From contig CANFUJ010000001.1 of the NCBI GenBank assembly GCA_947450165.1, forward strand, positions 5,600 to 69,599: a DNA stretch of 64,000 nucleotides. Reading direction: 5' to 3'. The stretch is from Chitinophagaceae bacterium. Lineage in GTDB: Bacteria > Bacteroidota > Bacteroidia > Chitinophagales > Chitinophagaceae. Both the position numbers and the translations under genes were made by a program. Below the pieces are notes generated by a model, which saw nothing but the letters and a program-made list of their open reading frames with translations, searched no databases and was not told where the DNA came from. Positions 4,147-64,000 of the stretch are shown piece by piece (within the stretch, counting starts at the first letter, position 1; each line of letters begins with the position of its first letter).

Positions 4147-4150
4147 TTAA

Positions 4151-4471: not shown

Positions 4472-4476
4472 GCGAA

Positions 4477-24997: not shown

Positions 24998-25057
24998 ACA
25001 AAAGAAAAAGAGACAGATTTTTCCACGCGTCACTAACACAATTACCATTGACAATTG

Positions 25058-43510: not shown

Positions 43511-43540
43511 TGGAAATAATACAAGCAATAAAATAATATA

Positions 43541-44206: not shown

Positions 44207-44246
44207 AAATTAACACAAATAATTTTAACACAAAACCATTTTTGTA

Positions 44247-46751
44247 ATGACACAAACAGAGAGTAAAAAGCTTAAAAGTATTTTTTTAAGGATTGGAACA
44301 GAAACATATGTTCAATTATTTGAACGATTCAAAAAAGTGTGTGAAAATAATATAAAACTTGAGCTTCAGCAATCAAAAGACTTATGCATTGAAGAAAGAA
44401 TAAAAAAGCACAATATTAATAATATAAATGACCAACAAAAGCAGGATTTGTTATCTGTAATTAATTTACTAAAAGACGAACAATATAGGTTCACAAAAAA
44501 TGATATTCCTCTGCTCGACAATTTTACAGCACGGATTGATTATTTATTAAAAGGTACTTCTCCAAGAGGCAAAGGGATGGCTGATCAAATAAATAATGTC
44601 AAGGACGGAGCAATTTTTAATAATGACGTACTGCATATCGATACTTTATTCAATGAATTTAAGATTGCTGAAAACTGGACAGAATTTGAAAAAAACACCA
44701 CAATACCTTCTTCTTTCTTTGATAGAAACTTTAAATGGAAATTAGTTTATGTTTTTTCAAATTGTAAAAATTGTCAGCAAAAAGATAAATACCCACTATA
44801 TTATGCTGCTTGGCAAGTTATTGCGGATTGGTGTTTTGATATTCCTTATGGTGACTATGACTCTTTTTGCAAACATTATAATGACATTTCTTTTTTACCT
44901 GAACCTAAACTGTTATATTTCAACATTTACTATGATTGCATAAGACTATCACTTAGAACAGACAATGAGTATATTGAATTTTTATCTTCTTTTGATCAAA
45001 ATAAAAAAATGAAAATTATGAGAGAAATAAGAGAAAATGAAGAACGGAATCCAGATGAAAATTATTTTCTTGAACAAGAAAGTAATCATAATGGTATAAA
45101 CACCATTCATTATAATTATTCACACTTCATAATTGAAATTAATTCTTTGTCAAATGTTTTTTCAATTGTAGAATCTGGTAGTGAAATTAGGTATAAGATT
45201 ATCATTCCTGGTAATCCTTTGTCAATACCAGAAATGAAATCAGGCGATAAAATACTTGTGGTAGTCAAAGATAAAATCACCTATAATTTAATAGTAGAAA
45301 ATACGGATTCAGAAGGCTCATTGGTTTTAAGAAAAGTATTTGAAATTGATCGCTCTGCTCATTATTCATTCGCAGAACAAGCAAAGATTTATAAAATTGG
45401 TAAAGAAGAATACGATAATATTTGTTCACTGTTGTTTTTCGATTTTTTTAATAAGCAAAATTCAAAAGAATCTTCAAAAAACATTGATTTAGGCAATTTA
45501 AAAGAAAAATTTGCAAATTGGCTTTTTGATAAGCGCAGGTACACGAGAGTTTATAAAAATAACATAGAAATCTTAAAAGAAAAACTCAATGAATATGAAA
45601 TTGCATATAATAATGACTTTGGCATTTTAATATTTGACTATCCTAATACTTCCATAGAATCAATTATTAATGCACTTGAAGCAAATAAAATAGATGATAC
45701 TGGTGAAATAGGTGATTTAAATAAAAGAACAGTTGGTAATGGTTCTGTTAAAGCGATATTAGGATCTAAGAATTATATAGAATTTCTAAAAGATTTATTA
45801 TTAAAATCAAAAATATCTATTTCAAAATCACCCAAAACCACTCCAGTAAATAAAATATATTTCGGAGCGCCTGGCACTGGTAAATCGTATCAAATAACCC
45901 AAGACTTAAAAGATATAGATTTAATCTTCCAGAAGCGAGTAACTTTTCATCCCGAATATGATTATGCATCATTTGTTGGAGGTTATAAGCCAATAACAGA
46001 TAATGATGGGAATATCAAGTATGAATTTGTACCACAAATATTTACAAATATATATGTTGAAGCATGTAATGATCCAGATCATCAGTACTATTTGATAATT
46101 GAAGAAATAAATAGAGGAAATTGCGCAGAGATATTTGGGGAGCTATTCCAATTGCTGGATAGGGATAAAAACTATAAAATAACGCCATCTAATGAAGTGA
46201 TTAATTACTTAAGTAATAATATCTCAAATTCGGAATATTTTAAAGATAATAAAATGTTATTGCCCGATAATTTAAGTATACTATCAACAATGAATACATC
46301 GGACCAGTCATTATTTCCAATGGACAGTGCATTTAAGCGCAGATGGGAATGGGAATACATTCCAATTAACTATAGCAAAGATGAGTCTATTAATAAGTCA
46401 GCTAATTATACTATTATCGTTGATTCTACAATAAGAGTAAATTGGATTGATTTCATAAAGAAGATCAATTTTAAAATTCAAGAAAACCAAAATTTAGGAA
46501 TGGATAAATGTATAGGAAACTACTTTATTAAGCCTAGTGAAAGCGGTGAAATAGGGTTAGGTAATTTTATTCACAAAGTAATTTTTTATCTATGGAATGA
46601 TGTTTTTAAAGATGAAACTAAAGACTCAATCTTTAAAGATAAAATAAGTTATCAAAGTTTCTTTCCAATACCAACAGAGGGATTAAAATTAGTTACCTCA
46701 ATTTTTAAAGATTTAAATCTGCTTGAACCAAACAAAACAGAAGAAGAATAA
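44247..46751 (+). CDS. McrB-like AAA+ GTPase restriction subunit with long N-terminal region
   Basis: FGAPGTGKS, VTFHPEYDY..FVGGYKP, IIEEINRGN, MNTSD, AFKRRW. Confidence 0.9.
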   Translation: MTQTESKKLKSIFLRIGTETYVQLFERFKKVCENNIKLELQQSKDLCIEERIKKHNINNINDQQKQDLLSVINLLKDEQYRFTKNDIPLLDNFTARIDYLLKGTSPRGKGMADQINNVKDGAIFNNDVLHIDTLFNEFKIAENWTEFEKNTTIPSSFFDRNFKWKLVYVFSNCKNCQQKDKYPLYYAAWQVIADWCFDIPYGDYDSFCKHYNDISFLPEPKLLYFNIYYDCIRLSLRTDNEYIEFLSSFDQNKKMKIMREIRENEERNPDENYFLEQESNHNGINTIHYNYSHFIIEINSLSNVFSIVESGSEIRYKIIIPGNPLSIPEMKSGDKILVVVKDKITYNLIVENTDSEGSLVLRKVFEIDRSAHYSFAEQAKIYKIGKEEYDNICSLLFFDFFNKQNSKESSKNIDLGNLKEKFANWLFDKRRYTRVYKNNIEILKEKLNEYEIAYNNDFGILIFDYPNTSIESIINALEANKIDDTGEIGDLNKRTVGNGSVKAILGSKNYIEFLKDLLLKSKISISKSPKTTPVNKIYFGAPGTGKSYQITQDLKDIDLIFQKRVTFHPEYDYASFVGGYKPITDNDGNIKYEFVPQIFTNIYVEACNDPDHQYYLIIEEINRGNCAEIFGELFQLLDRDKNYKITPSNEVINYLSNNISNSEYFKDNKMLLPDNLSILSTMNTSDQSLFPMDSAFKRRWEWEYIPINYSKDESINKSANYTIIVDSTIRVNWIDFIKKINFKIQENQNLGMDKCIGNYFIKPSESGEIGLGNFIHKVIFYLWNDVFKDETKDSIFKDKISYQSFFPIPTEGLKLVTSIFKDLNLLEPNKTEEE

Positions 46752-46772
46752 AAGAGTAAGGAATAATTTAGT

Positions 46773-48710
46773 ATGAGAATATTAATTGAAGGTCAGAGTT
46801 ATTTTGTTGAAGAGCTAAAGACTATTTTTAACGACCCTATGTTTTATACACAAAAGGGAGACTCTGCTATTATTAATTCTGTAGGTTATTATTATTCTAT
46901 AGAAAAAAAAGAAGTAGTTTATATGCTACCTAAGGTATTTCTTGCACCTGAAGATTTAAATAATAATGAAAACGAGATTAAATGTCTCTGGGAAAACAAA
47001 AAAACGGTTTTCAAAAATCATGATGGAAGAGCAATCAATCTTAAAGAATTATTTTATTTAGATAAATTACAAGGGTCGTTTAAACATGATGTTAAATATG
47101 AGTGGATCAGGCATATTACCATTAGTTTTTACAATAGTTTAATTGAATTTAAAAAAAGAAATTCCATTACTTCCATATTAAATACCGGAATAATCAACGA
47201 GTTAAATACAAATCTTGGTGATGATGAATATACTTATTTAGATTTGGTACTTAGTTTTACGAATTTTTATAAAAAAAACAAATCAATAATTCTTTTTAAA
47301 AACATCGAACATAAGATTAATCAAGCAAAGAAACCCAAATGGGAAAAAACCATTCGAAAATCTGTTCCTGTAATTGATAAAAAAAACCACCCTATTTATT
47401 TTCAAATTAGAAATAAAAAATCAATTATAAATATTGAAGAGGATTTGATCGTTTATTTTTTCTCAATACTAAATCATTTTAAAGAGGAAAACAATCTTAA
47501 TATTTCAATTGATAAAAGTTATTCCATTATCAAAGGAGAAGAGTTTAAAAAACTACAAGCATATGGACTATCAAAACTAAGAAAGATAAAATACAAATAT
47601 TTTTCTGATACAACGAAAAGAATGTATAAGTTATGTGAATTATATTTTGATGCTACAGATACTTCAAGTGTAAAAAAAAGAAGTGAAGAGTTTTTGAGTT
47701 TTAAAAAATATAACATTGTTTTCGAAGACATGGTTGATAAACTGCTTACAGAAGAAAATAAAATAGAAGCTTATGATAGAAAAATAAGTAAAGATGAAAT
47801 AAGCATCGAAAAACTAAAAAACAACGATGATGGAAAAATAATCGATCATTTGTTTGAACATGAAGGACTGATTGACACCTCAAATATATTTTACATTGGT
47901 GATTCGAAGTATTATAAACCAGGTAATATTGCCGATAAGCTATCAATCTTTAAACAGTATACTTATGCAAAAAATATCATTCAATACAATATCAACTTAT
48001 TTAATAATTCCCCCAAAATTTATAATCAAAACAAGTTAAATTATCGGGATGAAATAACAGAAGGGTATAATATTTTCCCAAATTTTTTGCTCTATGGTTT
48101 TATTGACAATCATGAAAATTTTCATGATATTTTACTTAATCCAATATCTAAAGATTTAGATGAATGCATAAAACACTCTTTTCATTGGAAAGACAGATTG
48201 TTTGATAGAGATTCACTTTTTATTTGTCAATACAAAATCAATTATTTGTTTGTTTTAAATGCATATACAGAAAAGAGTGATTTGTCATTGACTGAATATA
48301 GGCGAAGTATTAAAGAAATATTTAGAAATAAGTTTATTGAATATTTCGAATCAGAGAATATTTCTAAGTTTAGATTTTATAAATTAGAAATGGGAATGAC
48401 TGATTTAATAAAATTTGTTAATGACAATTTTAGAATTCTAAATGGCAAATGCATTAAATTAAATGACAACAGCCTCTTGATAGCAATTCACAATGAAGAA
48501 AAAAAAGAAGAAGTAGAAGTCGAAAAGAATGGTATAGGATCTGTAACTGACTTGTTAGGAAATACAGCCATTTTACATGAATATAAAATAAAAAAAGAAG
48601 TTTTCAGTTTTAATAGCTTTAAGGCCAAACAATTCTCAATATATGGTTCAGAAAGAGAAGTGGTATTAAATATTGCTGCAGAAGAAAATATTATTTTTAA
48701 AAAAGGATAA
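46773..48710 (+). CDS. LlaJI-family / McrC-like restriction endonuclease subunit
   Basis: INSVGYY..LPKVF, FEDMVDKL, KIIDH..YIGDSKYY (PD-(D/E)xK), KQYTYA. Confidence 0.85.
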   Translation: MRILIEGQSYFVEELKTIFNDPMFYTQKGDSAIINSVGYYYSIEKKEVVYMLPKVFLAPEDLNNNENEIKCLWENKKTVFKNHDGRAINLKELFYLDKLQGSFKHDVKYEWIRHITISFYNSLIEFKKRNSITSILNTGIINELNTNLGDDEYTYLDLVLSFTNFYKKNKSIILFKNIEHKINQAKKPKWEKTIRKSVPVIDKKNHPIYFQIRNKKSIINIEEDLIVYFFSILNHFKEENNLNISIDKSYSIIKGEEFKKLQAYGLSKLRKIKYKYFSDTTKRMYKLCELYFDATDTSSVKKRSEEFLSFKKYNIVFEDMVDKLLTEENKIEAYDRKISKDEISIEKLKNNDDGKIIDHLFEHEGLIDTSNIFYIGDSKYYKPGNIADKLSIFKQYTYAKNIIQYNINLFNNSPKIYNQNKLNYRDEITEGYNIFPNFLLYGFIDNHENFHDILLNPISKDLDECIKHSFHWKDRLFDRDSLFICQYKINYLFVLNAYTEKSDLSLTEYRRSIKEIFRNKFIEYFESENISKFRFYKLEMGMTDLIKFVNDNFRILNGKCIKLNDNSLLIAIHNEEKKEEVEVEKNGIGSVTDLLGNTAILHEYKIKKEVFSFNSFKAKQFSIYGSEREVVLNIAAEENIIFKKG

Positions 48711-52839: not shown

Positions 52840-53436
52840 TCATAGCATTAATTTCACTTGTTCAGATAATTTGAAGTATTCCTTGAAACAGGAAAAAGTT
52901 ATGTTAGCATCCTCAAGAGCATTGTGATAATTACCATCTCGTTCAATCTTAAACATTTCAGATACACTCTTTAAACTCATCGACTTAGGTCTTTTAATTC
53001 CGTTGTTATCGAATATTTTATAGAAAACAAATGAAATAGTCAATAAGTCAATCAATTTGGATGAGAAAGGCCATGGTAAATTTAAATCGCTATATTTAAA
53101 TTTAAGAAAGTTAATATCATTAATTACGCTTTGGCCACACAAAATAATATCATACAAATTATCGTTTTGCTTTCTTTTTAAATTCTTTCTCAACCAATTT
53201 TCAAGATCTTCAAATACATCATAAGCAGATGGTGCTTCTTCCAAGTCGTACAAAGAAATACCATGTATTTCTTCTGAACATTTCGAAATTGTTTCGGGGT
53301 TATCAGGGTACACTAAACTTTCAAATTCTGAAATCTTTTTCCAGTTTTCATCAGCTAGTACTGCTCCAATCTGAATTATATCATGATAATCGGATTCGGA
53401 CCCTGTCATTTCTAAGTCAAAAATCAAGTATGGCAT
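52840..53436 (-). CDS. DEDDh 3'-5' exonuclease
   Basis: IFDLEMTG, CGQSVINDINFL, YHNALEDA. Confidence 0.9.
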   Translation of the reverse strand: MPYLIFDLEMTGSESDYHDIIQIGAVLADENWKKISEFESLVYPDNPETISKCSEEIHGISLYDLEEAPSAYDVFEDLENWLRKNLKRKQNDNLYDIILCGQSVINDINFLKFKYSDLNLPWPFSSKLIDLLTISFVFYKIFDNNGIKRPKSMSLKSVSEMFKIERDGNYHNALEDANITFSCFKEYFKLSEQVKLML

Positions 53437-53499
53437 ATTATGTATTTTAAATTACCACTATCTCCGTATCTTCTTTCGTCTCTCCAACCAAAATAATCA

Positions 53500-53600
53500 T
53501 CTAAACGAAATCCCGAAATCCATCTTCCTCAAATATAATAATTCCCCTTCTCATCACCCTTCCGTAAATGCAGTAGTTGATAAACGCTTATGTTTTAAAC
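53500..53600 (-). repeat. Imperfect ~90-bp repeat, copy 1 (copy 2 at 57764-57854), containing a TATATTTG -7 box on the minus strand
   Basis: caaatataataa.ttcccc.tctcat.ac.cttccgtaa...cag.a.ttgataaacg..tat.ttt.aaac present in both copies. Confidence 0.8.
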
Positions 53601-53683
53601 AAAACTGAATAAAACTAACTATAAATCCTCCTAATTATTTTTTGAGCGTTGGCTGCTGTCTTTTTCTTCAGATCAGCAATTTG

Positions 53684-54712
53684 TCAATTTACATTTTTAA
53701 TAAATTTCACTAATCCTGTAAAATAAGTCTGTTGGTCATCATAAAAACAACAATGACTACCATTTGTACAGAGTAAAAATTCTCCATTGGGTATTTGTTT
53801 ACTCATCCATTCCATATAATTGGGGTCCATTGTGTCAAAGGTTGCACCAATTACAAGTGTTGGAACTTTTATGTTTTTTAATTCCTTGCTAATGTCCCAA
53901 TTCGCCAATTTTCCCGAAACGCCAAATTCACTTGGTCCTTGCATGTTGACATAGAGTTCGTTATTTAACTTTCCGAACATTCTGTTGATGGGTTCTGGCC
54001 ATTCTGCTAACCGTAAAACGTGTTTTGCATAAAAATTAGGCAATAACAATTCCATGTATTTTGGATTTTGGAAATCGCCTTTTTTCTCTATTTCTCGTAC
54101 CGTATCTAAAACAGCAGGAGGCATTTGTTTTGCTAAAACTTCATTTGCGTATTTTCCATATTCAGGGCAGCTTGCCATCATGTTAGAAATAACTAACCCT
54201 TTAATATTGTCTTGATATTTAAGGGCATATTGCATGGCAAGAATGCCACCCCAGGAATGTCCATACAAGAAGAAATTACTTTTATCCAAATTCAACGCTT
54301 TACGAACTTGTTCTACTTCTTCAACATATCGTGGCAGGTCATACAAAGACGTGTCTTTTGGATTGTCTGAATTGCCACAAGCAAGTTGGTCGTAATAGAT
54401 AAATTCTATGCCTTCTTTTGGTAAAAAACTTTCAAAACATTCGTAACCATCGTGTGATCCGCCTGGTCCACCGTGCAAAATTAAAACTTTCATGGATGGG
54501 TTATTTCCAATACGCTTAGTCCACACATTAAACGTTCCTTTTGGCGTGGTGATGGGAATAACTTTAATTCCTCCTGTTTGTACACCACTGTCTAAGTTTG
54601 AAAAGTATGATGATGCTTTTTCTGATGAAGCGTTATCATTTTTGTTTGTACAAGAATGAAGTGTTAACAATGCTGTCAACGAAAGGAATAAGTAAAAAAT
54701 ATTTTTTTTCAT
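53684..54712 (-). CDS. Proline iminopeptidase-family hydrolase, lipoprotein
   Basis: Lipobox LHSC; LHGGPGG, YDQL..G.SD, GHSWGG, TFDTM, GSH. Confidence 0.9.
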   Translation of the reverse strand: MKKNIFYLFLSLTALLTLHSCTNKNDNASSEKASSYFSNLDSGVQTGGIKVIPITTPKGTFNVWTKRIGNNPSMKVLILHGGPGGSHDGYECFESFLPKEGIEFIYYDQLACGNSDNPKDTSLYDLPRYVEEVEQVRKALNLDKSNFFLYGHSWGGILAMQYALKYQDNIKGLVISNMMASCPEYGKYANEVLAKQMPPAVLDTVREIEKKGDFQNPKYMELLLPNFYAKHVLRLAEWPEPINRMFGKLNNELYVNMQGPSEFGVSGKLANWDISKELKNIKVPTLVIGATFDTMDPNYMEWMSKQIPNGEFLLCTNGSHCCFYDDQQTYFTGLVKFIKNVN

Positions 54713-54749
54713 TTTATTGATTTGAAGTGGTTGATAGTTTTGATGTCAG

Positions 54750-54845
54750 ATAAGGTTGCAACAAACGATTTGTGTGCATGTAATCGTAACCCTGTGTTAC
54801 ATCTTCTGCAAGGTTATAGCACTTGCAAGCTGGTATAGGCTGCCA
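54750..54845 (-). other. Degenerate attC-like site ending the cassette array
   Basis: After the stop: GCAGCCTATACCAGC...TGCTATAACC. CTATAAC is complementary to this cassette's GTTATAG start, but R' is unclear. Confidence 0.4.
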
Positions 54846-54849
54846 TATT

Positions 54850-55341
54850 TTATCCTACTACATTTATACAATCAATGTTTGGATTGTATTGAATTTCCAA
54901 ATCATTGTTTTTCCATTTAGCTTTACAACTTTTCAATCTGTCACTTCCACCTTGGTTATAATAATAGCTAAGAAAATTTTCAATTAAATCTTCTACTAGC
55001 ACTATTTCTCCATCTTTTATGTCTTTGGGAATAACATATGCTGCCTCTTTCGGAAATTCAAATTTGTAATATTCATAGGTCCAATCCTGAACAACTTCAA
55101 AATCTTCCGAATAACCTCTTTCATCTCTGAAGTCGTATATTTTGAATTTCTTTCCAGACTTTTTATTTTTCATTATGCAGTATTTGCCTTTCACAGTTGA
55201 AAATGGCTCAACATTTTTGAAAATCAGATTAGCCCCTTTGGCTATTGCATTATCAATACTTTTTTGACCACGTAATGTCTCAATCTTTCTAAGATTATCA
55301 ATTCCGCTTTTCTTGCTTTTCCAAAAATTCCAAAATGCCAT
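54850..55341 (-). CDS. Hypothetical protein (cassette 4, ORF b)
   Basis: 163-aa ORF; starts 1 nt after the upstream stop. Confidence 0.6.
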   Translation of the reverse strand: MAFWNFWKSKKSGIDNLRKIETLRGQKSIDNAIAKGANLIFKNVEPFSTVKGKYCIMKNKKSGKKFKIYDFRDERGYSEDFEVVQDWTYEYYKFEFPKEAAYVIPKDIKDGEIVLVEDLIENFLSYYYNQGGSDRLKSCKAKWKNNDLEIQYNPNIDCINVVG

Positions 55342-55342
55342 A

Positions 55343-55585
55343 TCAGATTCTTTTTGCGTTAATTTTTAAACAAGTTTCTGGTCTCTTATTCAATAGAAAC
55401 ACAACCTCATCATCAGATAAAAATTCAATATTCAGAACAGATTTATTGCAATGGATACAATTCCTCTCAATGTCATTCTTTCCCGGCATTATATTCCCCC
55501 ATTCAACATCTCTTGGACATTGCATTTTCTTGACAAATTCTCCTTTGTCTGTATAAAGCTCTTTTGTGTCAACTTTGTATTGCAT
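55343..55585 (-). CDS. Small Cys-containing hypothetical protein (cassette 4, ORF a)
   Basis: 80 aa; QCP..W..M..RNCIHC..C; starts about 20 nt after a GTT core. Confidence 0.6.
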   Translation of the reverse strand: MQYKVDTKELYTDKGEFVKKMQCPRDVEWGNIMPGKNDIERNCIHCNKSVLNIEFLSDDEVVFLLNKRPETCLKINAKRI

Positions 55586-55604
55586 TTAGCTTTTGTCTTT
55601 TGTT

Positions 55605-55742
55605 TAACTATAACTGTTCGCAGCTAACCGAAGGGAGGTAGTTTTACTGCAAAGCCTGATTTCAAAAACTAATGTTTGATTAATCACAAAACTGTCTTTG
55701 TAATTCAAAACCTTGCCTTTTGGGTAGGTGCTGTTATAGCCA
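55605..55742 (-). other. attC-like site (long type)
   Basis: Minus strand: GGCTATAAC-AGCACCTACCCAAAAGG...CCTTCGGTTAGCTGCGAACA-GTTATAG; imperfect inverted repeat right after the gene. Confidence 0.75.
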
Positions 55743-55768
55743 GTATATTTATAATTCATGTCTTCCAC

Positions 55769-56281
55769 TTACTTTAATAGCAGGAATAATAACAGAAAAA
55801 TTACAATTCCTAAAATTAGATATAATACAATTTTATTATTGGACCCTTTTTCATATCTTGAATAAATGTGATTTAAAAAAATATCTATTGTTGGTTCCTC
55901 CTCAAAATTGCCATGATTTAAATGTGTTCCTAATTCTGGAGTGGAACCAATCATATATCTATCATTGCCATTTTCTGATGGGTTTGATTTTTCAAGTGTA
56001 TAGTATTTCGTAATTTTTCTTTTAAAATCAAAGAACAATAAACCAAATTTAGCTTCTGTCATTTTTAATGGTTCAGGAAAAATGTACATCCCTACAGATT
56101 TTGTTTTTGAAAGAATTTTATGCTCAATTATCAAATCATCAGAACTAAAATCATTTTCTTCTTTACTTAGGATTTCTTTTATAAATATTTCATCTAACAA
56201 TTTAACTTGTTTGATTTTGCCTTTTTTGAATTCATCTATTAAGTAAGGGATTAACCTGTATGCAAGATCGTAACGTCTCAT
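55769..56281 (-). CDS. Hypothetical protein with C-terminal TM helix (cassette 3)
   Basis: 170 aa, bounded by attC-like sites. Confidence 0.65.
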   Translation of the reverse strand: MRRYDLAYRLIPYLIDEFKKGKIKQVKLLDEIFIKEILSKEENDFSSDDLIIEHKILSKTKSVGMYIFPEPLKMTEAKFGLLFFDFKRKITKYYTLEKSNPSENGNDRYMIGSTPELGTHLNHGNFEEEPTIDIFLNHIYSRYEKGSNNKIVLYLILGIVIFLLLFLLLK

Positions 56282-56302
56282 TTTATATCATTTTGTGTAT
56301 AT

Positions 56303-56384
56303 TAACTATAACGGTTTGCGTGTAAGCGATGTGCCTTGTGTTGCGCCCAGGCAAGGCAATATTGCTTACACGTTGTTAGTTGTA
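56303..56384 (-). other. attC-like site
   Basis: Minus strand: TACAACTAAC-AACGTGTAAGC-AATATTGCCTTGCC...GGCACATC-GCTTACACGC-AAACC-GTTATAG. Confidence 0.85.
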
Positions 56385-56385
56385 G

Positions 56386-57132
56386 TTATTTCTTGTAGCA
56401 TATTATTTTATCAGCGTGTTTAATTTTCAATTCGTTAAGTGGTCGTGTTACATTTAAATTATCTTTTTTCAATATGATTCCATTTTTTGTGTTGAAAAGA
56501 ATCCATTCTTCACCATACGAAAATTGATTTACTTCATTCGTAATCAGTCCGTATATATAGTCAAGAAAATTTTGAAAGGCAGGAAATATGTTTGTTTTTA
56601 TTGAGATTCTTGAATAAGGCAAGGATAAAAATCCATCAAAATATATTGTTATGATATTCATCTCATTGTACCAAATATTGTCTTCTTTTGGAATAAATTC
56701 AATTAGCTTTTCATCGTATTCAACATCGAGTATTGAATGCCATTCTAAAAGACAATCACTATTAGATTCTAGGCCATATTTTGTATTACTAAAAGCATTT
56801 CGTATTTCACCCGTCAAATGATATGCTTGTAATCGTTTTTTCAAAATAGGTTTAATTGAATCATCTACAAATGAAGGTCTACAATTAAGCCACCAACTTA
56901 TATAGTCTCTTTTGCACGAAACATTTCTTTTAGGAAACTCAATCAAATTGATTACATCTTGTAAATCGTTATGCCAATCGTCTGACCAATATAATGGATT
57001 ATATCCCTCGCTTATTGAATAACAAATTTGTTCTATGTCTTGGTCGTCATATGGGAATAAGTTTTTTGTTATAAAAACACTCGAAGAATCCGAGGTTTGA
57101 ATAATTAAAAGTTCATTTTCTTTTCTTTTCAT
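56386..57132 (-). CDS. Hypothetical protein (cassette 2)
   Basis: 248 aa; the stop abuts attC and the start lies 14 nt after the previous core. Confidence 0.7.
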   Translation of the reverse strand: MKRKENELLIIQTSDSSSVFITKNLFPYDDQDIEQICYSISEGYNPLYWSDDWHNDLQDVINLIEFPKRNVSCKRDYISWWLNCRPSFVDDSIKPILKKRLQAYHLTGEIRNAFSNTKYGLESNSDCLLEWHSILDVEYDEKLIEFIPKEDNIWYNEMNIITIYFDGFLSLPYSRISIKTNIFPAFQNFLDYIYGLITNEVNQFSYGEEWILFNTKNGIILKKDNLNVTRPLNELKIKHADKIICYKK

Positions 57133-57145
57133 CGTGATTTATAAT

Positions 57146-57229
57146 TACAACTAACGTTTTGCGTGTAGGCGATGTTGCCTTGTGTTGCGCCTGCGGCAAG
57201 GCAATATTGCTTACACGCTGTTATGAGTA
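57146..57229 (-). other. attC-like site
   Basis: Minus strand: TACTCATAAC-AGCGTGTAAGC-AATATTGCCTTGCC...GGCAACATC-GCCTACACGC-AAAAC-GTTAGTTG; near-identical to the 56303 site. Confidence 0.85.
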
Positions 57230-57235
57230 GGTAGA

Positions 57236-57685
57236 TTAGAATTCATTATTCAAGATTGGTAAACAATTATTTTGATTTAAATAATGTCGTAATGAAATTG
57301 ATTCAATGTATGCGGGTGGGTTGTTTAGATTTGAATAAATTACCAAAAATATTAATGAATCGAATGTGTTCTCGGTCATGACATTCTGGAAATATAAATA
57401 GCTATTATTATAAGTTCCTCTTGGTGCTTTAAGGCGTCCATTAAGATTTTGATTTTTAAATGTACCATCATTTTGAATTGTTCCACCTTTACCAATATAC
57501 AATATCTGATGATTGTCTGAATTGCATATTGCATAAATACCATAATTCATTTGAACATGAAGGTTGATTAAATTGTCATAGTATTGTTTACCATCATTTG
57601 CATTCATATTGGCTAATTGAATAGTAAATTGATTACTTCCATTAGCCAAAGGGGTTGTCAGGTTTAAAAGCTCATTTATTGTCAT
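57236..57685 (-). CDS. GIY-YIG-like nuclease (cassette 1)
   Basis: YGIYAI..ILYIGKGG..LNGRL..IES. Confidence 0.7.
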   Translation of the reverse strand: MTINELLNLTTPLANGSNQFTIQLANMNANDGKQYYDNLINLHVQMNYGIYAICNSDNHQILYIGKGGTIQNDGTFKNQNLNGRLKAPRGTYNNSYLYFQNVMTENTFDSLIFLVIYSNLNNPPAYIESISLRHYLNQNNCLPILNNEF

Positions 57686-57705
57686 ATATTTGTTACTTTA
57701 TTACT

Positions 57706-57740
57706 TACTCATAACTCGCTTATACCCGAAATTTCCATCG
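57706..57740 (-). other. Leading GTT core (attI-like or truncated attC)
   Basis: ...GGGTATAAGCGA-GTTATGAGTA; the last 10 nt are the exact complement of cassette 1 R'' (TACTCATAAC). Confidence 0.5.
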
Positions 57741-57763
57741 TCTATCCATCCAATAATAGTTCT

Positions 57764-57854
57764 CTAAGCGAGATCCCCTCCCCCAAATATAATAAATTCC
57801 CCCTCTCATTACGCTTCCGTAACACAGCAATTGATAAACGTGTATTTTTTAAAC
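57764..57854 (-). promoter_or_regulatory. Repeat copy 2; candidate Pc-like promoter for the cassette array
   Basis: TTATTATATTTG (TAnnTTTG) on the minus strand, about 70 nt upstream of the first cassette core. Confidence 0.5.
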
Positions 57855-58039
57855 CCATATTTTGCAGCTGAAATCTATTAAAAGAAAAAAATGCTTCTAA
57901 TACAAGCGTTTGCATGATTTTTTGATCTTATCATATGTCAATATGTTCGCGACCAAAAAATCGGCTCAACCTTTATTGCCTTTTTTCTTTTCATCACGAT
58001 TCCAACTGCAAAATCCGGGTTATTCAAAACCGAAAAACA

Positions 58040-59266
58040 CTAACTATACATCCCCATAATCGTACTCATCTCCTTCTTCACCTTCGAACCCGTTATTTTC
58101 GCATATTCTTGAGTATGTTTAATCGTACTATGGCCAAGCATCTTACTCACGGTTTCGAGAGAGATACCATTGCTTAAAGTAATGGTGGTAGCAAAAGTGT
58201 GACGACCCAAGTGCATAAATATTTTCCTATCAATATTCGCCAGCAATGCAACCTCTTTCAACTTACCATTAAGCTTAGAGTTGTATGGAACCTTCCAGCG
58301 GAAATTTCTAAAATCAGCGTCTATGGAATATTTCAATAAGATTTTTTCAGCGGTTGGTAACAACGGTATCAAACTCATGATTTCCGTTTTGTAACGAGCT
58401 TTATGAATAAACTTGCTTCCATCCTGGTCGATGTTGATATGTCCTTTCTTGAGTTCTTTGATATCCGAATAAGCCAGACCGGTATAGCAAGCAAATAAAA
58501 ATAAATCACGGGCGAGTTCTAAATCTGGTTTTAGATCGGACACCTTCTCCATTTGTTCTAATTCTTCTATGGAAAGATATTCTCTGTTCACTGGCTTTCT
58601 TTTAAAATGAATCGAATCAAAAGGGTTCTTTTGGATTACACCCGATTCAATGGCTATTTTTAAAACAGTTCTTAGCACACTTAATAAAGAGGTAACCGAG
58701 TTTTGACCATTCTGTTTTTCTTTACGCAGAAAGTTGCTGAATTTGTTGATGAAGTCTACATCAATTCCACTAACGGGATAGTTTTTAAAATTCCTACTGC
58801 TCATCAGAAACTCTTCAAGATATCGTTTAACTCTTTTGTACTTATAAAAAGTAGTACCCTGCATATCAATATCAACGGACTCTTCCAGCTCTTTTATTTT
58901 TATATCCATGTATTCCATCACGGACTGGGGTGCTGGTTCTTTCCCTTTGATACAATCGATAAGCTCGTTGACGCTAAATGGTTTTTTACTTTCCTTTAGT
59001 TCACGGTAGCGCTCTTTGGATTTTTCTCTGATGAGTACCAGTTCTTCATTGATAGCAATGGCCTCATCATTAACTGGGTCAACCATGTTTTTTTCCGAGA
59101 TCCAGTAATCAGCATGGCAAGAAAGACCTGTTACGATGTCTTTTCTGGTTTTGTGATAATTTACCCGCATTACAATAGGATGTTCTCCATTTTCATAGGC
59201 AAATGTTCTTCTAAGATGGAAATGGATGCTGAATTCAGCCGATTCCATTAGATTGTTTCTTCTCAT
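58040..59266 (-). CDS. Tyrosine integrase (Bacteroidota ICE/mobilizable-transposon type: Arm-binding + SAM-like + catalytic)
   Basis: RDLFLFACYTGLAYSDI, RYKT, HLGRHTFAT, MLGH, TQEYA. Confidence 0.95.
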   Translation of the reverse strand: MRRNNLMESAEFSIHFHLRRTFAYENGEHPIVMRVNYHKTRKDIVTGLSCHADYWISEKNMVDPVNDEAIAINEELVLIREKSKERYRELKESKKPFSVNELIDCIKGKEPAPQSVMEYMDIKIKELEESVDIDMQGTTFYKYKRVKRYLEEFLMSSRNFKNYPVSGIDVDFINKFSNFLRKEKQNGQNSVTSLLSVLRTVLKIAIESGVIQKNPFDSIHFKRKPVNREYLSIEELEQMEKVSDLKPDLELARDLFLFACYTGLAYSDIKELKKGHINIDQDGSKFIHKARYKTEIMSLIPLLPTAEKILLKYSIDADFRNFRWKVPYNSKLNGKLKEVALLANIDRKIFMHLGRHTFATTITLSNGISLETVSKMLGHSTIKHTQEYAKITGSKVKKEMSTIMGMYS

Positions 59267-59454
59267 TTTATAAAATTTAAGGTTTAAAAGTGCATAAAAT
59301 TTCGTTTCGATTTTGGTGCAAAACGAAGCAATTCAATGCGTAAAAAACGAGAAAGAAGAAGTGTGAGTTACGTGATTTTCTGTTGCAAGTATGTTGCCAA
59401 ATTAGGGCAACATTGAGGCGACTTATGCACGTATATGCATTTTAAAAATGTAAA

Positions 59455-59495
59455 AAGGCCTGAAAAACAGCTATTTGCACGTTTTTGCAGGCCTT
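59455..59495. terminator. Hairpin next to the att site
   Basis: aaggcctg-aaaaac...gttttt-g-caggcctt. Confidence 0.55.
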
Positions 59496-59496
59496 C

Positions 59497-59524
59497 TGGT
59501 GGTGTGGGCCGTCAATGGACCGGC
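59497..59524 (-). other. Degenerate tRNA 3' end (T-arm + acceptor strand + CCA); candidate att junction
   Basis: Minus strand: GCCGG-TCCATTG-ACGGC-CCACACC-A-CCA, the exact 5-7-5/7/1/3 tRNA geometry, with a mutated T-loop and one stem mismatch. Confidence 0.6.
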
Positions 59525-59631
59525 AATAATAAAACAATATAATACAATGCTTTTCAAGTAGTTATAATTATTTTTAAGAAAATAATACCATAAAATTAGA
59601 GTACAATGTACTCTATTCGGTATATTTGAGT

Positions 59632-61155
59632 ATGAGTTTATATTTTTCACTTCACAAAAGAGGAGGAGTTAATCATTCAAAAAACTCCGAGATTCCTATA
59701 AGGTTAAACTACTATTATAAAGGTCATAAAATAGGGTTCTCAACCGATGTCTCTGTTAAACAAAAGGATTGGAATGAGGGTGATTCTAATAATCCCGTCA
59801 AAACAACTGATGAAAACCATGTATCTAAAAACAGTACTTTAAGAGGATTAAAAAGAGATGTAGAGAAAGAGATAGATTTAATTCGTGTCGGTGAAAAAGA
59901 ACCCTTAACCAAAACGGTTAAAGATAGATTTTCAAATAGGAAATTAAGAGAAGTAAAAGAGGTTAATTACGAATATCCGGTAGTTGAGGTTTTTCGGAAA
60001 TACTTAAAGGATGTTATTGAAAATAGTACCAATCAATTTTCAATTAATCATGTACGTTCATATAGAAGTACATCTAAACACATATTTACTATTCTGAAAA
60101 ATATATTTGATGATAGGTTGTATTTTGACCAGATAGATGGGGATGTAATGAATGAATTCATCAGTTATGGGATAAGAAAAAAACTATCTAATTCCACAAT
60201 TCAAAAATTCATCGGACACTTCAGAACATTTTTTAACTGGAGTAAAGAAAAGGGGTATCATAATAATGTATCAGTAAAATTTTATAGTAAGAAAATAAAA
60301 GATGATTTATCTGAAAAAGATGTTGTTTACCTGTATAGAAACGAAGTGAAAAAATTATTTGAATTGGATGAAATTAACTATTCTAATCCTGAACATAAAA
60401 AACATAGTACTGAATACTTAGTTGATTTTCTTAAAGACAATGAAAAAAGAATTTATACCAATCTTGAATTTTGTCGTGATTTACTTTTGTTTGAATGTGG
60501 GTTAGGAACTCGTTATGGTGATACAATAAAACTAAAGGTGGAACACTTTGATTTTACTCGGAAAGAGTTCAAAATATATATGGAAAAAACCAATAGAACT
60601 GTTCGTGTTCCCATTAATGAAATGACCGATAAAATTTTTAGAAAGTACTCAAAGGATAAAACTAAAGATGATTATATTTTCCCAAAGACACTAAATGGGA
60701 ATTTTTATCCAAATCAAAAATTCAATAATCACATTAAGTTAATTGGAGAATTGTGTAATCTCAATAGATTGATTCATCGTCCATTGAGAAGTGGAAAAAA
60801 CATCATTGGAGATACGGATAAATCAAAACGACTATATGAAGTAATATCATCCCATGTAGGAAGAAGAACTTTTATAAAGGAAGGGATTATCAATAAAATT
60901 GAACCTTATGTGATAATGTCTATGGTTGGACATAGGTCTTTAAGAGTTTTTGAAAGATACTTCAGTATGAATGATGAGGACAGAAAAGTTTCATCTACAT
61001 TGTTTGGTTTTGTATCAGAAAACCCTAAGGTCCAAACATCTCAAAATATCGATGTTAGAAATAGATTAATAGAAATTAAAAGTCTCTTTGATGAAGGATT
61101 GATTGATGAGGATGTTTATAAAGAAAAGGAGAAAGAGATTTTGAAACTATTATAG
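59632..61155 (+). CDS. Tyrosine integrase with C-terminal SHOCT-like tail; no alanine
   Basis: RDLLLFECGLGTRYGD, MEKT, SSHVGRRTF, VGH, FERY; tail RLIEIKSLFDEGLIDEDVYKEKEKEIL. Confidence 0.92.
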   Translation: MSLYFSLHKRGGVNHSKNSEIPIRLNYYYKGHKIGFSTDVSVKQKDWNEGDSNNPVKTTDENHVSKNSTLRGLKRDVEKEIDLIRVGEKEPLTKTVKDRFSNRKLREVKEVNYEYPVVEVFRKYLKDVIENSTNQFSINHVRSYRSTSKHIFTILKNIFDDRLYFDQIDGDVMNEFISYGIRKKLSNSTIQKFIGHFRTFFNWSKEKGYHNNVSVKFYSKKIKDDLSEKDVVYLYRNEVKKLFELDEINYSNPEHKKHSTEYLVDFLKDNEKRIYTNLEFCRDLLLFECGLGTRYGDTIKLKVEHFDFTRKEFKIYMEKTNRTVRVPINEMTDKIFRKYSKDKTKDDYIFPKTLNGNFYPNQKFNNHIKLIGELCNLNRLIHRPLRSGKNIIGDTDKSKRLYEVISSHVGRRTFIKEGIINKIEPYVIMSMVGHRSLRVFERYFSMNDEDRKVSSTLFGFVSENPKVQTSQNIDVRNRLIEIKSLFDEGLIDEDVYKEKEKEILKLL

Positions 61156-61253
61156 TTTACTAATTACAAAATGAGTTTTTTATCAATGTTTTCAATTAAA
61201 TTATTATTTTTAAATTGTAATAAAATTTCGAATTTATTTCTATTGAATCACCA

Positions 61254-61748
61254 ATGTTAAAAAAGTCTTTATTTATGAAATATATAATTATCTTTTTTTT
61301 AATTGTTTCTCCAATTATAACTTTTGGTCAATTGAAATATGTCGATTTGGTTTTTATATATAAATCAAATACCGAAAATTGTGACATTTACCTTTCAAAG
61401 AAAAAATTTCAATTTTTTAAAAAAGAAGACAATTCTACTACATGGTCAGAAGAAAGAAATGAAATAAATGATAGGGCTGTCAGATTTATTGCCAAATATT
61501 GTCCTGAAAGAAACTGTGGTTTTTGGTACCAAACAGGAAATCAAAGGGAATACAACTCAATAAAAAATGAATTTAAAAGTAATGGATATAAATTAATTTA
61601 TGATCCATCAGACAAGGAGTATGAAAATAAATTTGGGGGAATACAATCAACTTATTCCAATGGAGTTAACAAAGCCCAATTCACCTCATCTTTAAGTGAT
61701 GATAATCGAAACATTTATACAATATCAATGTCTAGTAGAATAAACTAA
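61254..61748 (+). CDS. Secreted hypothetical protein
   Basis: Signal-peptide-like MKYIIIFFLIVSPIITFGQ. Confidence 0.6.
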   Translation: MLKKSLFMKYIIIFFLIVSPIITFGQLKYVDLVFIYKSNTENCDIYLSKKKFQFFKKEDNSTTWSEERNEINDRAVRFIAKYCPERNCGFWYQTGNQREYNSIKNEFKSNGYKLIYDPSDKEYENKFGGIQSTYSNGVNKAQFTSSLSDDNRNIYTISMSSRIN

Positions 61749-61765
61749 TTTATTCAAATAATGTT

Positions 61766-62335
61766 TCACATCAACTCATCAAAACTCTGATAAATATCCT
61801 TAATCTCTTCTTTGGATATTCCTAAATATGTTCTCGTTATTGAGGTTGAACTGTGGTTTAGTATAGAGGAGAGTTTAATCAGATACTCGTCAGAATGACC
61901 ATTGTTTTCCCAAATAAAACGACTTCCACTTTTACGGAGTGAGTGTGTCGAGATATGTTTGTTTTTGATTCTTTCATTTTTCCCACCCTCCTTTAATAGT
62001 AGGTTGGTATGTTGAAGAGTATATCTGAACATAAAACCATCTTTATTAGTAGTTTTTAGTTCATTGAAGGTGTTTTCTATAGATTCTCTCAATGACCTAC
62101 CAATAGTTATTTCCCTCCTTTTATTCGTTTTCTGTTCGTTTAGAACCAAAACATCTTTTCCCAATACATCAACCCATTTGATACGACTTAAATCAGAAAA
62201 ACGGAGTAATGTTTTCACACCGAACTCAATCAATAAACTCATTGAATAGTTTTTCTCTTTACGGAAGTAACGAGATAATCTCAATATCTCATCAGTAGTT
62301 AAATAATCAGAGGTTTTGTAGTTTGTTGTTGTCAT
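61766..62335 (-). CDS. Small tyrosine recombinase/resolvase (catalytic domain only); no alanine
   Basis: LLRFSDL, EQKTNKRR, THSLRKS, LNHSS, TRTYLG. Confidence 0.9.
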   Translation of the reverse strand: MTTTNYKTSDYLTTDEILRLSRYFRKEKNYSMSLLIEFGVKTLLRFSDLSRIKWVDVLGKDVLVLNEQKTNKRREITIGRSLRESIENTFNELKTTNKDGFMFRYTLQHTNLLLKEGGKNERIKNKHISTHSLRKSGSRFIWENNGHSDEYLIKLSSILNHSSTSITRTYLGISKEEIKDIYQSFDELM

Positions 62336-62813
62336 TTTAAATTCACTTTTATTTGATACCACGAATGTATCAGGATGTTCATTAGTAGCAAAATATTCTC
62401 ATAAAAGAATATCAAAAAAGTTAAAGAATTTATATCGTGTTGAAAGTCAATGACTCCTGATTTTATATTCGTTATTGATATAAACGAATATTTTCTTTTT
62501 GTAAAAAAAGTTGGTAAAAAGTGTTCGTTTGGGTTTTGAATCTTATATATATAGTTGGAAGTGGTGGTAGAATACTTCTAAAATATAAACTACTAAACTT
62601 TCAGTAAACTCTGATTGGATCGTGTAAAGTAAATCCCATCGGTTAACCTCAATCTTTGTAAGTTTCTAGTGATGTTAATACCCCCAGTTGAATTATTAAT
62701 CGTTCGGTCGGTATATGCAATAGGATACATTAATTCAAAATAAACTTACTGAGGGGGTGATAATACCTCTGAAGATTATTAATAAAACCAATACTTATAA
62801 TAAAACAACCACT

Positions 62814-63014
62814 ATGATACAATTTGAAACACTAATCGGAATTGAGGAATTAAGTAAAGAGATAGGGTTAAACAAATACACTATTTACAAGAAAATGAGA
62901 GAGAATAAATTTCCTAAAGGAATTAAAGTAAACGGAAAGAGAATGTTCAAACCTGATATGATATTAAATTATTACAAAGAATTAGGAATATCTGTAAAAC
63001 TCACAAATAATTAA
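62814..63014 (+). CDS. AlpA/excisionase-like HTH protein; no alanine
   Basis: LIGIEELSKEIGLNKYTIYKKMRENKFPKGIKVNGKRMF. Confidence 0.8.
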   Translation: MIQFETLIGIEELSKEIGLNKYTIYKKMRENKFPKGIKVNGKRMFKPDMILNYYKELGISVKLTNN

Positions 63015-63113
63015 ATTGATACAGATTATCAAGGTAATTATGACACACCAGTAATGATAAGTTTGTTATTCTTTTACAATGGTATATTTTAATACAGATT
63101 GGATTTTGACAGA

Positions 63114-63380
63114 CTAATCTTCATCAGAAGTATAGTCCATTATATAATCATCCATTTCAGAATTGTCTTTTTGGATTACACCATTGAAAGCAAGTTCAAG
63201 AGCTTCTTTTGCCATATCCATTCTTCTTTCTCTCAATAGTTCTGATAACATAATCAATCGAGTGAAATAACCCTTTGTTTCTTCAGTAAGTTCATCTGAT
63301 TTCATTCCTTCAAAGAATGATTCAAAAGTTTCATTGAAATTATTTTCAATTCCCCATGTTGTTAGTTTCGGTAGTTTCAT
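63114..63380 (-). CDS. Small acidic hypothetical protein
   Basis: 88-aa ORF overlapping the upstream HTH gene. Confidence 0.5.
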   Translation of the reverse strand: MKLPKLTTWGIENNFNETFESFFEGMKSDELTEETKGYFTRLIMLSELLRERRMDMAKEALELAFNGVIQKDNSEMDDYIMDYTSDED

Positions 63381-63606
63381 TTGTTTCTCCTTCTATTTTA
63401 TATCCTTGTTTTATTAAAAAATTTATAACCTCTTCTTTGGTGTAAAGTTGTTTACTACCTGAGACATTAAACCCATTCAGGTATCCTTTTCTTTTATAGT
63501 AGTAAATCATTTCTCTTGTGATTCCCAAATCGTTGGCTAATCCAGTAGCATCGTAGAGGTTATTTATATCCTCATACTTAACCCGCTTTTCAGTTTCTAC
63601 AATCAT
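63346..63606 (-). CDS. MerR/HTH_17-like DNA-binding protein
   Basis: LYDATGLANDLGITREMIYYYKRKGYL..SKQLYTKEEV. Confidence 0.75.
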   Translation of the reverse strand: MIVETEKRVKYEDINNLYDATGLANDLGITREMIYYYKRKGYLNGFNVSGSKQLYTKEEVINFLIKQGYKIEGETNETTETNNMGN

Positions 63607-64000
63607 TGTATCATTTACAATAAATATTCAGTTTTTGAGAAAAAATTACTTTTCCTCAAAAAGATTACGATTTGTATAGAGTGAAAATTGGGAGGGAAAT
63701 GTGAAGTAGTCCGACAAGTAAATTTGGGACCGGCAAATAATCCGATTACATGAAATTTAGTATGAAGTAGAAATTAAAAAAATTAAATTCCCAATAAGTC
63801 CCATCTATTAAGAAACTCTTTATTTATATCCTTAAATTTTCTCATCGTACTATCATTATGTTTTTGTCCGTTTTTTCCAGGAGTAGATAACCACTTCTTA
63901 TGTCCAGCTGAAATTTGATTTGAAACAACTTTACTCGGTACAATATAATATTCAGGTAGGTTATCTTCTGATATTAGATTTACAAAAACATAAACAATAT

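Follow-up and report, generated by a model that had tools for sequence, protein, structure and literature searches.

GpC-free DNA and alanine-free proteins in a clade of integrative islands from aquatic Bacteroidota: a ban acting on the dinucleotide

How can a mobile element do without one dinucleotide in its DNA and, with it, without one amino acid in its proteins? This question is raised by the right end of a stretch of 64,000 nucleotides (the window, to whose positions all coordinates refer) from contig CANFUJ010000001.1 of a Chitinophagaceae bacterium (assembly GCA_947450165.1). From position 59551 to the window end at 64000, which cuts it, lies a GpC-purged integrative island, delimited by its GC counts and by synteny with the islands at three other loci (L035, L038 and L039). 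In its first 1925 bp (59551-61475) the dinucleotide 5'-GC-3' does not occur a single time. The nearest GC on either side are at 59549 and 61476, which leaves 1927 bp between them; elsewhere in the window, the longest such gap measures 306 bp. By base composition about 34 GC were expected there (Poisson P ~1e-15). The 4450 bp up to the window end contain exactly 13 GC (2.9 GC/kb), an observed/expected ratio (o/e) of 0.14 against 1.23 in the other 59.5 kb of the window, where each 1-kb bin has 11-48 GC. The inverse dinucleotide persists, with 25 CG in 59551-61475 and an o/e of 0.69-0.74, and so do GG and CC. An earlier note on this DNA, made from the letters alone, had reported the GC and CG counts of the island, which were all reproduced, and had argued that low G+C content does not explain them; the depletion is indeed far larger than low G+C would produce.

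The same note had described three alanine-free open reading frames (ORFs) in the island, and we found 0 Ala in each of them: an integrase of 509 amino acids (aa), a 198-aa recombinase and an AlpA-like protein. The three Cys codons of the integrase are all TGT, and the motif replacements noticed with respect to the neighbouring integrase (HLGRHTFA to HVGRRTFI and LFACYTG to LFECGLG) are present in the translations. That neighbour (58040-59266) has 17 Ala, uses TGC and has normal GpC. Taking the rates of host genes for each codon class, in the three alanine-free ORFs (2331 nt) positions 1-2 of the codons should contain 37 GC, positions 2-3 should contain 16 and the codon junctions 18, and the observed numbers are 0, 0 and 0. 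Thus, 34 expected GC that have nothing to do with alanine are also absent. Since codon positions 2-3 and the junctions are purged as well, the banned thing is a DNA word and not an amino acid, and the depletion is strong enough to delete alanine, both as proposed. The ban is looser in the right part of the island: three ORFs of 164, 88 and 86 aa have 3, 3 and 2 Ala (8 in total), and 9 of the 13 residual GC fall inside them. A chimeric assembly was ruled out, given that a 1332-bp contig from an independent lake metagenome covers 59499-60813; lake-metagenome contigs mapped to 56000-64000 confirm the presence of the island and its left junction, and isolates, single-cell genomes and metagenome-assembled genomes (MAGs) provide more than 35 loci with the same island architecture.

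The integrase marks a clade of tRNA-targeting integrative islands in aquatic Bacteroidota, whose hosts belong to Flavobacteriia, Cytophagia, Saprospiria and Bacteroidia. An exhaustive profile search delimited this clade to about 40 clusters at 50% identity (at least 233 bits), of which about half have 0 Ala and the others 0.2-3.4%; nearly all relatives of the window integrase down to 28% identity have 0 Ala. Alanine loss and GpC depletion, whose extent among homologues the earlier note had left to be checked, are therefore clade-wide. We took 34 loci from species-representative genomes, with carriers among Flavobacteriaceae MAGs and single-cell genomes, Maribacter sp. Asnod1-A12, Draconibacterium sediminis JN14CK-3, Algoriphagus and Saprospiraceae. 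With few exceptions, these loci show a drop of GC from 15-50 to 0-5 per 500 bp exactly upstream of the integrase. There is no GC at all in the islands of L013 and L015 (11.7 kb each) and L032 (11.8 kb), in the complete islands of L025 (6.5 kb) and L019 (5.7 kb), and in the complete 15.2-kb island of an Aquirufa antheringensis isolate (L037). The flanking host DNA has normal or high GpC everywhere (o/e ~1.2), and the islands are spread over four classes, which speaks against long residence in a host as the cause, one of the origins that had been suggested.

The islands target tRNA genes, those for Met, Phe, Arg, Gln, Lys and Pro among them, and are inserted at the 3' end. Perfect 24-nt direct repeats flank L019 and correspond to the 3' end of tRNA-Phe, and 16-nt direct repeats flank L037 and correspond to that of tRNA-Lys; such att repeats indicate that the relatives of the window island are real mobile elements. 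Clustering of the island ORFs revealed a core of four genes. The integrase (500-550 aa) was found in 31 loci and an HTH_17 excisionase-like protein in 13; a serine recombinase is present in 8 loci, its alternative being a small tyrosine recombinase, and the fourth protein, of 133-169 aa, matches Rep (REP_ORF2-G2P) weakly. A gene of about 455 codons that joins ParB_N and N6_N4_Mtase domains is present in 16 loci, in 15 of them directly after the integrase and in L009 distal and on the opposite strand. Most of the cargo consists of defence genes, with AbiH in L025 and complete type I restriction-modification (R-M) systems in L015, L035, L037, L038 and L039; all of these are alanine-free, including HsdR of 980-989 aa. 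A phage satellite or prophage was considered and rejected. The window integrase has no relatives in IMG/VR and reaches at most 27% identity in INPHARED, the ParB-methyltransferase has none in IMG/VR and only distant ones in INPHARED, and no virion structural genes were found in the complete islands. As a separate observation, in two GC-free islands of one MAG (contig JAGYKX010000007.1; L019 10001-11553 and L032 185-1791) the integrase is split into two ORFs, which reflects either inactivation or a frameshift error of assembly.

To define what is banned, we analyzed 89 kb of strict islands, using a maximal-order Markov expectation for the palindromes. All 16 NGCN contexts are eliminated in them, with GC o/e of 0.00-0.01. 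Ten divergent intergenic regions (3.3 kb) hold 1 GC when 59 were expected, and since part of these regions lies upstream of both promoters and is purged nevertheless, a target present only in mRNA does not suffice. In relaxed islands the residual GC is not depleted in palindromic contexts (TGCA 1.02, AGCT 0.75). The loss of all NGCN together with this unbiased residue indicates that the target is the dinucleotide itself and not the sum of AGCT, GGCC, TGCA, GCGC and CGCG. The residual GC have AT-rich flanks only, with no spared sub-motif such as YGCR, which gives no support to an RGCY-only target. In one relaxed clade GC is a rare derived state beside AC or GT that lasts for a while. Two other candidates were abandoned: the depletion of GNC (0.46) is not a separate signal, as it follows from the ban on GGC and GCC, and an anticodon nuclease does not agree with the use of TGT, AGT and GGT codons, which are read by tRNAs with GC-containing anticodons.

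In addition to the ban, the islands present a restriction-site avoidance footprint that is stronger than in the host. The seven G/C-containing 4-bp palindromes without GC rank among the eight most under-represented 4-mers of the strict islands: GATC (o/e 0.13), CTAG (0.30), CCGG (0.48), ACGT (0.54), CATG (0.59), TCGA (0.67) and GTAC (0.72). CCNGG is also avoided (0.44). The palindromes AATT, ATAT, TATA and TTAA are at 0.91-0.98. In the host flanks the o/e is 0.72-1.02.

The consequences for the proteins are considerable. Alanine makes up 0.02% of the residues of island proteins versus 6.0% in those of the host flanks, and the gap is filled mainly by Lys, Glu, Arg and Ser. In HsdM, for which the 120 best clusters were taken (77-100% identity, each a 90% cluster), 109 of the 120 clusters have 0 Ala. 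The nearest ordinary plasmid HsdM is about 50% identical and has 4.8-7.4% Ala; no plasmid with an alanine-free HsdM was found in PLSDB, where the best match was 50% identical. Islands with integrases only about 34% identical have almost the same HsdM, so modules have been exchanged inside a GC-free gene pool. The columns that hold Ala in ordinary HsdM are occupied in the islands by 17 different residues, with Ser first (S15, K9, E8, P6, T6, C5, N5, D4, V4, I4 and others). Even motifs were remodelled: motif I of HsdM reads DPCCGTGG, and the integrase has RRTFI.

The loss can also be reversed. A few HsdM lineages have regained Ala at highly conserved Ser columns, in 9 of 20 columns, some of them in 4-8 lineages, and this repeated return at the same columns indicates that the ban is costly and is reversed once lifted. 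An Ignavibacteriaceae MAG (GCA_014879635.1; L040 3466-9442) carries an hsdMSR operon 77% identical to the alanine-free clade in an ordinary chromosomal setting, beside ATP synthase and without an integrase, with a GC o/e of 0.8 and 1.6-2.7% Ala. This operon is a fossil of alanine-free ancestry that times the loss of the constraint. In the 13.4-kb island of L038, all four GC are located in hsdS (11707-13020), which has 4 Ala; the sequence suggests a recent swap of the target-recognition domain with a GC-normal hsdS.

Avoidance relaxes where the element carries a candidate protective methyltransferase, although only in few independent lineages. The 14 islands with the ParB_N + N6_N4_Mtase gene have 2.2-5.0 GC/kb, compared with 0-0.3 GC/kb in the 16 islands without it. 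Likewise, GC is absent from the integrase gene in 15 of 15 islands that lack the methyltransferase and occurs at least once in 15 of 16 islands with it. Motif IV of this enzyme is FTSPPY in 120 of 120 clusters, a signature of N4-cytosine enzymes, and its sequence matches in the PDB are a mixture of m6A and m4C enzymes. From this motif, the ParB-fused enzyme is predicted to methylate N4 of cytosine. The ParB-SPPY methyltransferase (P0354 and its relatives) is extremely abundant in marine metagenomes, one 90% cluster having 1036 members, and the best 120 clusters keep 1-5 Ala, which on reading the sequences were located in the VANQ and HPAPFP motifs. Another sequence of the same R-M lineage (L044, IMG/VR UViG_3300020169_001442) has a GC o/e of 0.18 over 15 kb. 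At 2805-4793, beside hsdMSR, it encodes a 662-aa fusion of an Asn-synthase/QueC-like PP-loop domain to a C5-cytosine DNA methylase, a possible hypermodification enzyme for cytosine. This element does not avoid GATC.

What has to be explained, then, is a ban of DNA-level nature, with its observed age and spread, its relaxation and its reversal. In the explanation that we favour, and to which we give about an even chance, the purge is a form of target avoidance under horizontal transfer. Unmodified cytosine in the GpC of incoming DNA would be attacked by the recipient cells or by something encountered during transfer, and only GpC-free copies could be sure of establishing themselves, irrespective of how the host methylates its DNA. 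Strong and long-lasting purifying selection would thus act on island DNA against 5'-GC-3' itself; a cytosine methyltransferase of its own would give the element partial relief from the ban, and the loss of mobility would remove the pressure. The selective agent would be a nuclease-like or deaminase-like defence specific for GpC. Going further, and here somewhat short of an even chance, aquatic Bacteroidota, their phages or their conjugative elements might harbour a widespread activity that recognizes bare GpC in unmodified incoming DNA (a 2-bp immune nuclease, glycosylase or deaminase, together with a matching cytosine modification), to which the mobile pool would have answered with GpC-free DNA and a 19-amino-acid proteome.

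Escape from a GpC-acting defence, as the earlier note had envisaged, is the best fit to the palindrome avoidance, the relief by a methyltransferase and the regain of GC, but several results weigh against it. Neither the islands nor the host flanks yielded a nuclease, deaminase or methyltransferase specific for GpC, and no relaxase or oriT was recognized in the islands. A few single GC are conserved, such as that at 62388 (L035 18720), so the agent would tolerate isolated sites or would not be absolute. The link between methyltransferase and relaxation comes from about four independent lineages only and is confounded with the host lineage (two relaxed islands occur in one MAG and two strict ones in another); it could also arise because the methyltransferase needs two conserved Ala. 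The window island is itself relaxed (2.9 GC/kb), yet no methyltransferase is present in the 4.4 kb at hand; from its GC density, a gene for a cytosine methyltransferase would be predicted past 64000. Finally, the lake-metagenome contigs over 56000-64000 provided no clean empty-site, circle or excision junction.

Other explanations can be confronted with the same data. A GpC-specific cytosine deaminase with a defence or toxin role, acting on double-stranded DNA or on the transferred single strand, could turn GC into GT or AC at each passage, so that the ban would be mainly mutational, like the editing by RIP or APOBEC, and alanine would drift away as a consequence. It would account for the relaxed clade, where GC alternates mostly with AC/GT (16 of 25 alternative states). 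ParB-fused methyltransferases reportedly act on the incoming single strand, and N4-methylation could plausibly interfere with deamination. The residues that now occupy the Ala columns are not Val and Thr alone, and Ser, Lys, Glu, Pro, Thr and Cys, among others, are found there; this long-term pattern would still be compatible if selection re-optimised Val and Thr later. However, the ORFs are intact, without pseudogenisation and with invariant catalytic residues, GC is a rare derived state that persists for a while, the newly swapped hsdS segments of L038 keep Ala and GC instead of Val and Thr, and the parallel avoidance of GATC, CTAG, CCGG, ACGT and CATG is left unexplained. We therefore consider the purely mutational origin, which had also been put forward in the earlier note, as unlikely. 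A promiscuous element could alternatively have accumulated the avoidance of many ordinary GC-containing sites (AGCT, GGCC, TGCA, GCGC, CGCG, GCNGC and type I/III sites) with no dinucleotide-specific agent involved. The islands clearly avoid common 4-bp palindromes, and by enumeration GC lies within 5 of the 16 4-bp and 23 of the 64 6-bp palindromes; yet CG lies in as many and is only at an o/e of 0.50. The disappearance of 16 out of 16 NGCN (o/e 0.01) goes far beyond that of any real 4-mer site, the best being GATC, the residual GC of relaxed islands is not depleted in palindromes, as mentioned above, and the loss of an amino acid is a cost out of proportion to the gain. This possibility seems quite improbable to us.

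We judge equally improbable a self-immunity by absent target, in which the islands would outlive a GC-DNA-destroying activity of the same cell (from a helper element, a phage or the island itself) and would still express their defence or escape. Defence genes (type I R-M and AbiH) prevail in the cargo, the ban spans the whole island up to the att sites, and chloroviruses, whose 2-4-bp cutters degrade host DNA, offer a precedent. Nevertheless, the core (integrase, small recombinase, HTH protein and Rep-like protein) contains no candidate nuclease, the integrase and the ParB-methyltransferase lack relatives in IMG/VR and have only distant ones in INPHARED, and neither the palindrome avoidance nor the methyltransferase-linked relaxation would be explained. 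Selection could also act on RNA, with transcripts that resist a GC-cutting endoribonuclease (a toxin or a phage shut-off RNase). A GC on one strand is also a GC on the other, so the coding strand does not tell a target in RNA from one in DNA, and the only two GC left in L035 are both intergenic. Against this, the divergent promoter regions, partly untranscribable from either gene, are purged as well, the co-avoided words are DNA palindromes and the relaxation correlates with a DNA methyltransferase, which makes a target in RNA very improbable. Scarcely credible, at last, is a protein-level constraint (avoidance of alanine or of tRNA-Ala) or an artefact (a chimera, sequencing errors at modified bases or synthetic DNA). 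The absence of alanine agrees with the former, and a chimera would be compatible with the window taken alone. The data exclude both, however: GC is equally absent from codon positions 2-3, junctions and non-coding DNA, Cys, Ser and Gly, whose anticodons contain GC, are still used through TGT, AGT and GGT, the replacements vary (DPCCGTGG, RRTFI) without any fixed misreading, and the same state is found in isolates, single-cell genomes, MAGs and unitigs of several studies.

A search of full-text literature yielded no description of GpC-free elements or alanine-free proteins. A loose lead only is the report of GpsC phosphorothioate dinucleotides in gut DNA and of dnd genes in Bacteroidetes (PMC7464106). 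A 2-bp ban in all contexts, across an exchanging gene pool and the classes of a phylum, and at the cost of an amino acid, is without known precedent. Site avoidance as a principle is already known, but every surviving explanation needs an activity that has not been described.

Regarding the organization of the window island, its left boundary is a displaced tRNA 3'-end remnant on the minus strand (59499-59549), likely the attL site, which is host-derived and still contains GC. The remnant (GTGGTGTGGGCCG...) is the reverse complement of ...CGGCCCACACCA, a tRNA acceptor/CCA end, and its motif GTGGTGTGGG(G/C)CG is also found in L035 and L036, directly upstream of their integrases; metagenome unitigs end at 59497-59499. 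The sharp switch that had been located at a tRNA remnant was confirmed, and the identity of the remnant is given by the reverse complement, but neither ARAGORN nor Rfam calls a tRNA in the window, the remnant included. The island is oriented as in L037, with the displaced remnant followed by the integrase, and the intact tRNA is expected past 64000. Of the flanking target repeats that distinguish an integrative island, the window contains only the left remnant; the right end lies beyond 64000 and was not recovered, because a 52-nt string from the window end had no match in the genome and metagenome contig collections.

The tyrosine integrase (59632-61155, plus strand; 507 aa, or 509 aa from a TTG at 59626) consists of Arm-DNA-bind_5, SAM_5 and catalytic domains and a C-terminal SHOCT-like helix pair. 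The catalytic domain matches PF00589 (E = 5.7e-13), R294, K319, R411, H434 and Y443 are invariant across 26 integrase relatives, and H408 is nearly so. The AlphaFold model has a pLDDT of 80.6 overall and above 90 in the catalytic domain, and Foldseek matched it with XerA, Tn1549 Int, XerH, IntI, lambda Int and Cre at probability 1.00. The model is confidently that of a tyrosine recombinase with the two-domain C-shaped clamp fold. Exact-protein look-ups of this integrase returned no match. The 164-aa ORF that follows (61254-61748, plus strand) has a hydrophobic N-terminus, no family match, 3 Ala and 3 GC. Slot comparison shows that it fills the cargo position held in L035 by hsdR-hsdS-DUF5655-hsdM, and the window island is a small version of its type I R-M-bearing relatives. 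The 198-aa protein (61766-62362, minus strand; 0 GC), described before as resolvase-like, is instead a small tyrosine recombinase with the catalytic domain only (PF00589, E = 1.3e-14); it belongs to the core and is also present in L035, L038 and L039 (189 aa).

The divergent promoter region (62363-62810) has two GC, at 62388 and 62717. The first is conserved with L035 position 18720 (TAGCAAAATAtTCTCAT; within TAGCAAAATA(T/A)TCTCAT), the integrases of both islands being 81% identical, and the fact that a single non-coding GC is kept in two islands indicates that isolated sites can be tolerated. Read along the minus strand, the site is TAnnTTTG followed by C and looks like a -7 box (Bacteroidota consensus TAnnTTTG) upstream of the small recombinase. 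Downstream is the AlpA/HTH_17 excisionase-like protein (62811-63014, plus strand; PF05930 and PF12728). Its 67-aa start corresponds to the ATG shared with L035, whose orthologue starts MIQFETLIGIEELSKEIGLNKYTIYKK; from a GTG at 62757 it would have 85 aa. Two overlapping small ORFs of 88 and 86 aa (63114-63606, minus strand), the second HTH-like in appearance, have 3 and 2 Ala and account for 6 of the 13 residual GC. The last ORF (63818-64000, minus strand) is cut by the window end, and its translation shows a C-terminal part only.

In the rest of the window, a long plus-strand run of defence-type genes with normal GpC extends from 12200 to 48710. It includes a 2CompART/2CompARG ADP-ribosyltransferase-glycohydrolase (17958-19727), a DRT-type reverse transcriptase RT_UG19 (25055-26749), an 815-aa Hsp70-like protein (27534-29981), a GajB/UvrD-like helicase (29956-31164), a Schlafen-group-3 helicase (37264-39120), a C5 cytosine methylase (41987-43510) and an 834-aa AAA_5/REase_II protein (44247-46751) followed by a 645-aa partner, all on the plus strand. 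The last three (41987-48710) resemble an LlaJI/McrBC-like R-M system; in a genome search the AAA_5 restriction subunit proved to belong to a common Bacteroidota family whose members have just the C-terminal ATPase in common, and no connection with the genomes that carry islands was apparent. A second island-like segment (53000-59266), made up of minus-strand ORFs without family matches, ends in the 408-aa integrase at 58040-59266. The arrangement looks like a GC-normal and a GC-free element in tandem at one att site, abutting the same tRNA remnant. Within that segment, the stretches 57068-57334 and 57869-58135 reach a word depth of 24-1700, mostly 300-1700, versus about 5-15 around them in four lake-metagenome runs; the second stretch is the lowest in depth in runs X1-X3, and many differing loose ends occur at 57150/57223 and at 58021. 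Both are short multi-copy sequences, either an intergenic repeat or the end of a small mobile element.

If the favoured explanation is true, the 2-bp-specific agent or the protecting methyltransferase would represent a new immunity mechanism and a useful reagent. The gene pool is also a natural experiment in protein evolution, with hundreds of conserved and evidently functional proteins made from 19 amino acids, and GC-free runs of at least 1 kb are a trivial compositional marker for mobile defence islands in genomes and metagenomes. The existence of cultured carriers (Aquirufa antheringensis, GCA_054558795.1, Maribacter sp. Asnod1-A12 and Draconibacterium sediminis JN14CK-3) makes the question directly testable.

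Among the known systems, the closest is classical restriction-site avoidance, as in the staphylococcal phage K, which lacks GATC, and in Bacillus phages, which lack GGCC. The islands share with it that short G/C palindromes are under-represented with respect to the Markov expectation, more than in the host, and that some words are wholly lost. They differ in that what they avoid is a 2-bp step whatever its context, over an exchanging pool and a deep divergence, and in the cost, which amounts to one amino acid out of 20, another four codons and 1/16 of the codon junctions. Chloroviruses possess M.CviPI, a GpC methyltransferase, and R.CviJI, which cuts RGCY and, when relaxed, RGCN/YGCY; to our knowledge, these are the only enzymes described as recognizing GpC or a near-equivalent, and we know of none in bacteria. 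They demonstrate that GpC specificity is biochemically possible and usable for wholesale DNA destruction, but they come from viruses of eukaryotic algae, no homologue of them emerged here, where no search was aimed at one, and the island methyltransferase belongs to another family (beta-class N6_N4, SPPY). Its ParB_N + N6_N4_Mtase architecture is shared with ParB-fused orphan methyltransferases of conjugative plasmids (M.EcoGIX and M.BceJIV), which reportedly have an anti-restriction role on the entering single strand. Those enzymes are m6A and of the DPPY type, whereas the island enzyme carries FTSPPY and is a predicted N4-cytosine methylase; its gene lies beside the integrase at one end of the island, and islands that carry it avoid sites less strongly.

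The missing-target logic is also known at the RNA level, where transcripts of ACA-less genes are immune to MazF and those without GCU to MqsR; those are 3-nt words in a few mRNAs, whereas the islands purge untranscribed DNA too. CpG depletion of vertebrate RNA viruses under ZAP and the mutational footprints of APOBEC and RIP are likewise cases in which a host factor imposes a dinucleotide signature on a genetic parasite, but there the depletion is partial (o/e ~0.2-0.6) or the hypermutation destructive, while strict islands reach 0.00-0.01 with functional, conserved genes. Lastly, ordinary Arm-DNA-bind_5/SAM_5 integrases, including that at 58040-59266, have the same domains, catalytic residues and tRNA 3'-end att sites as the GpC-free clade. 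The more distant ones, of 410-440 aa, have 3-7% Ala, and the relatives of 410 aa have 3-8%; the integrases of the GpC-free clade are about 100 aa longer, carry the SHOCT-like tail and are separated from them by a gap in bit score.

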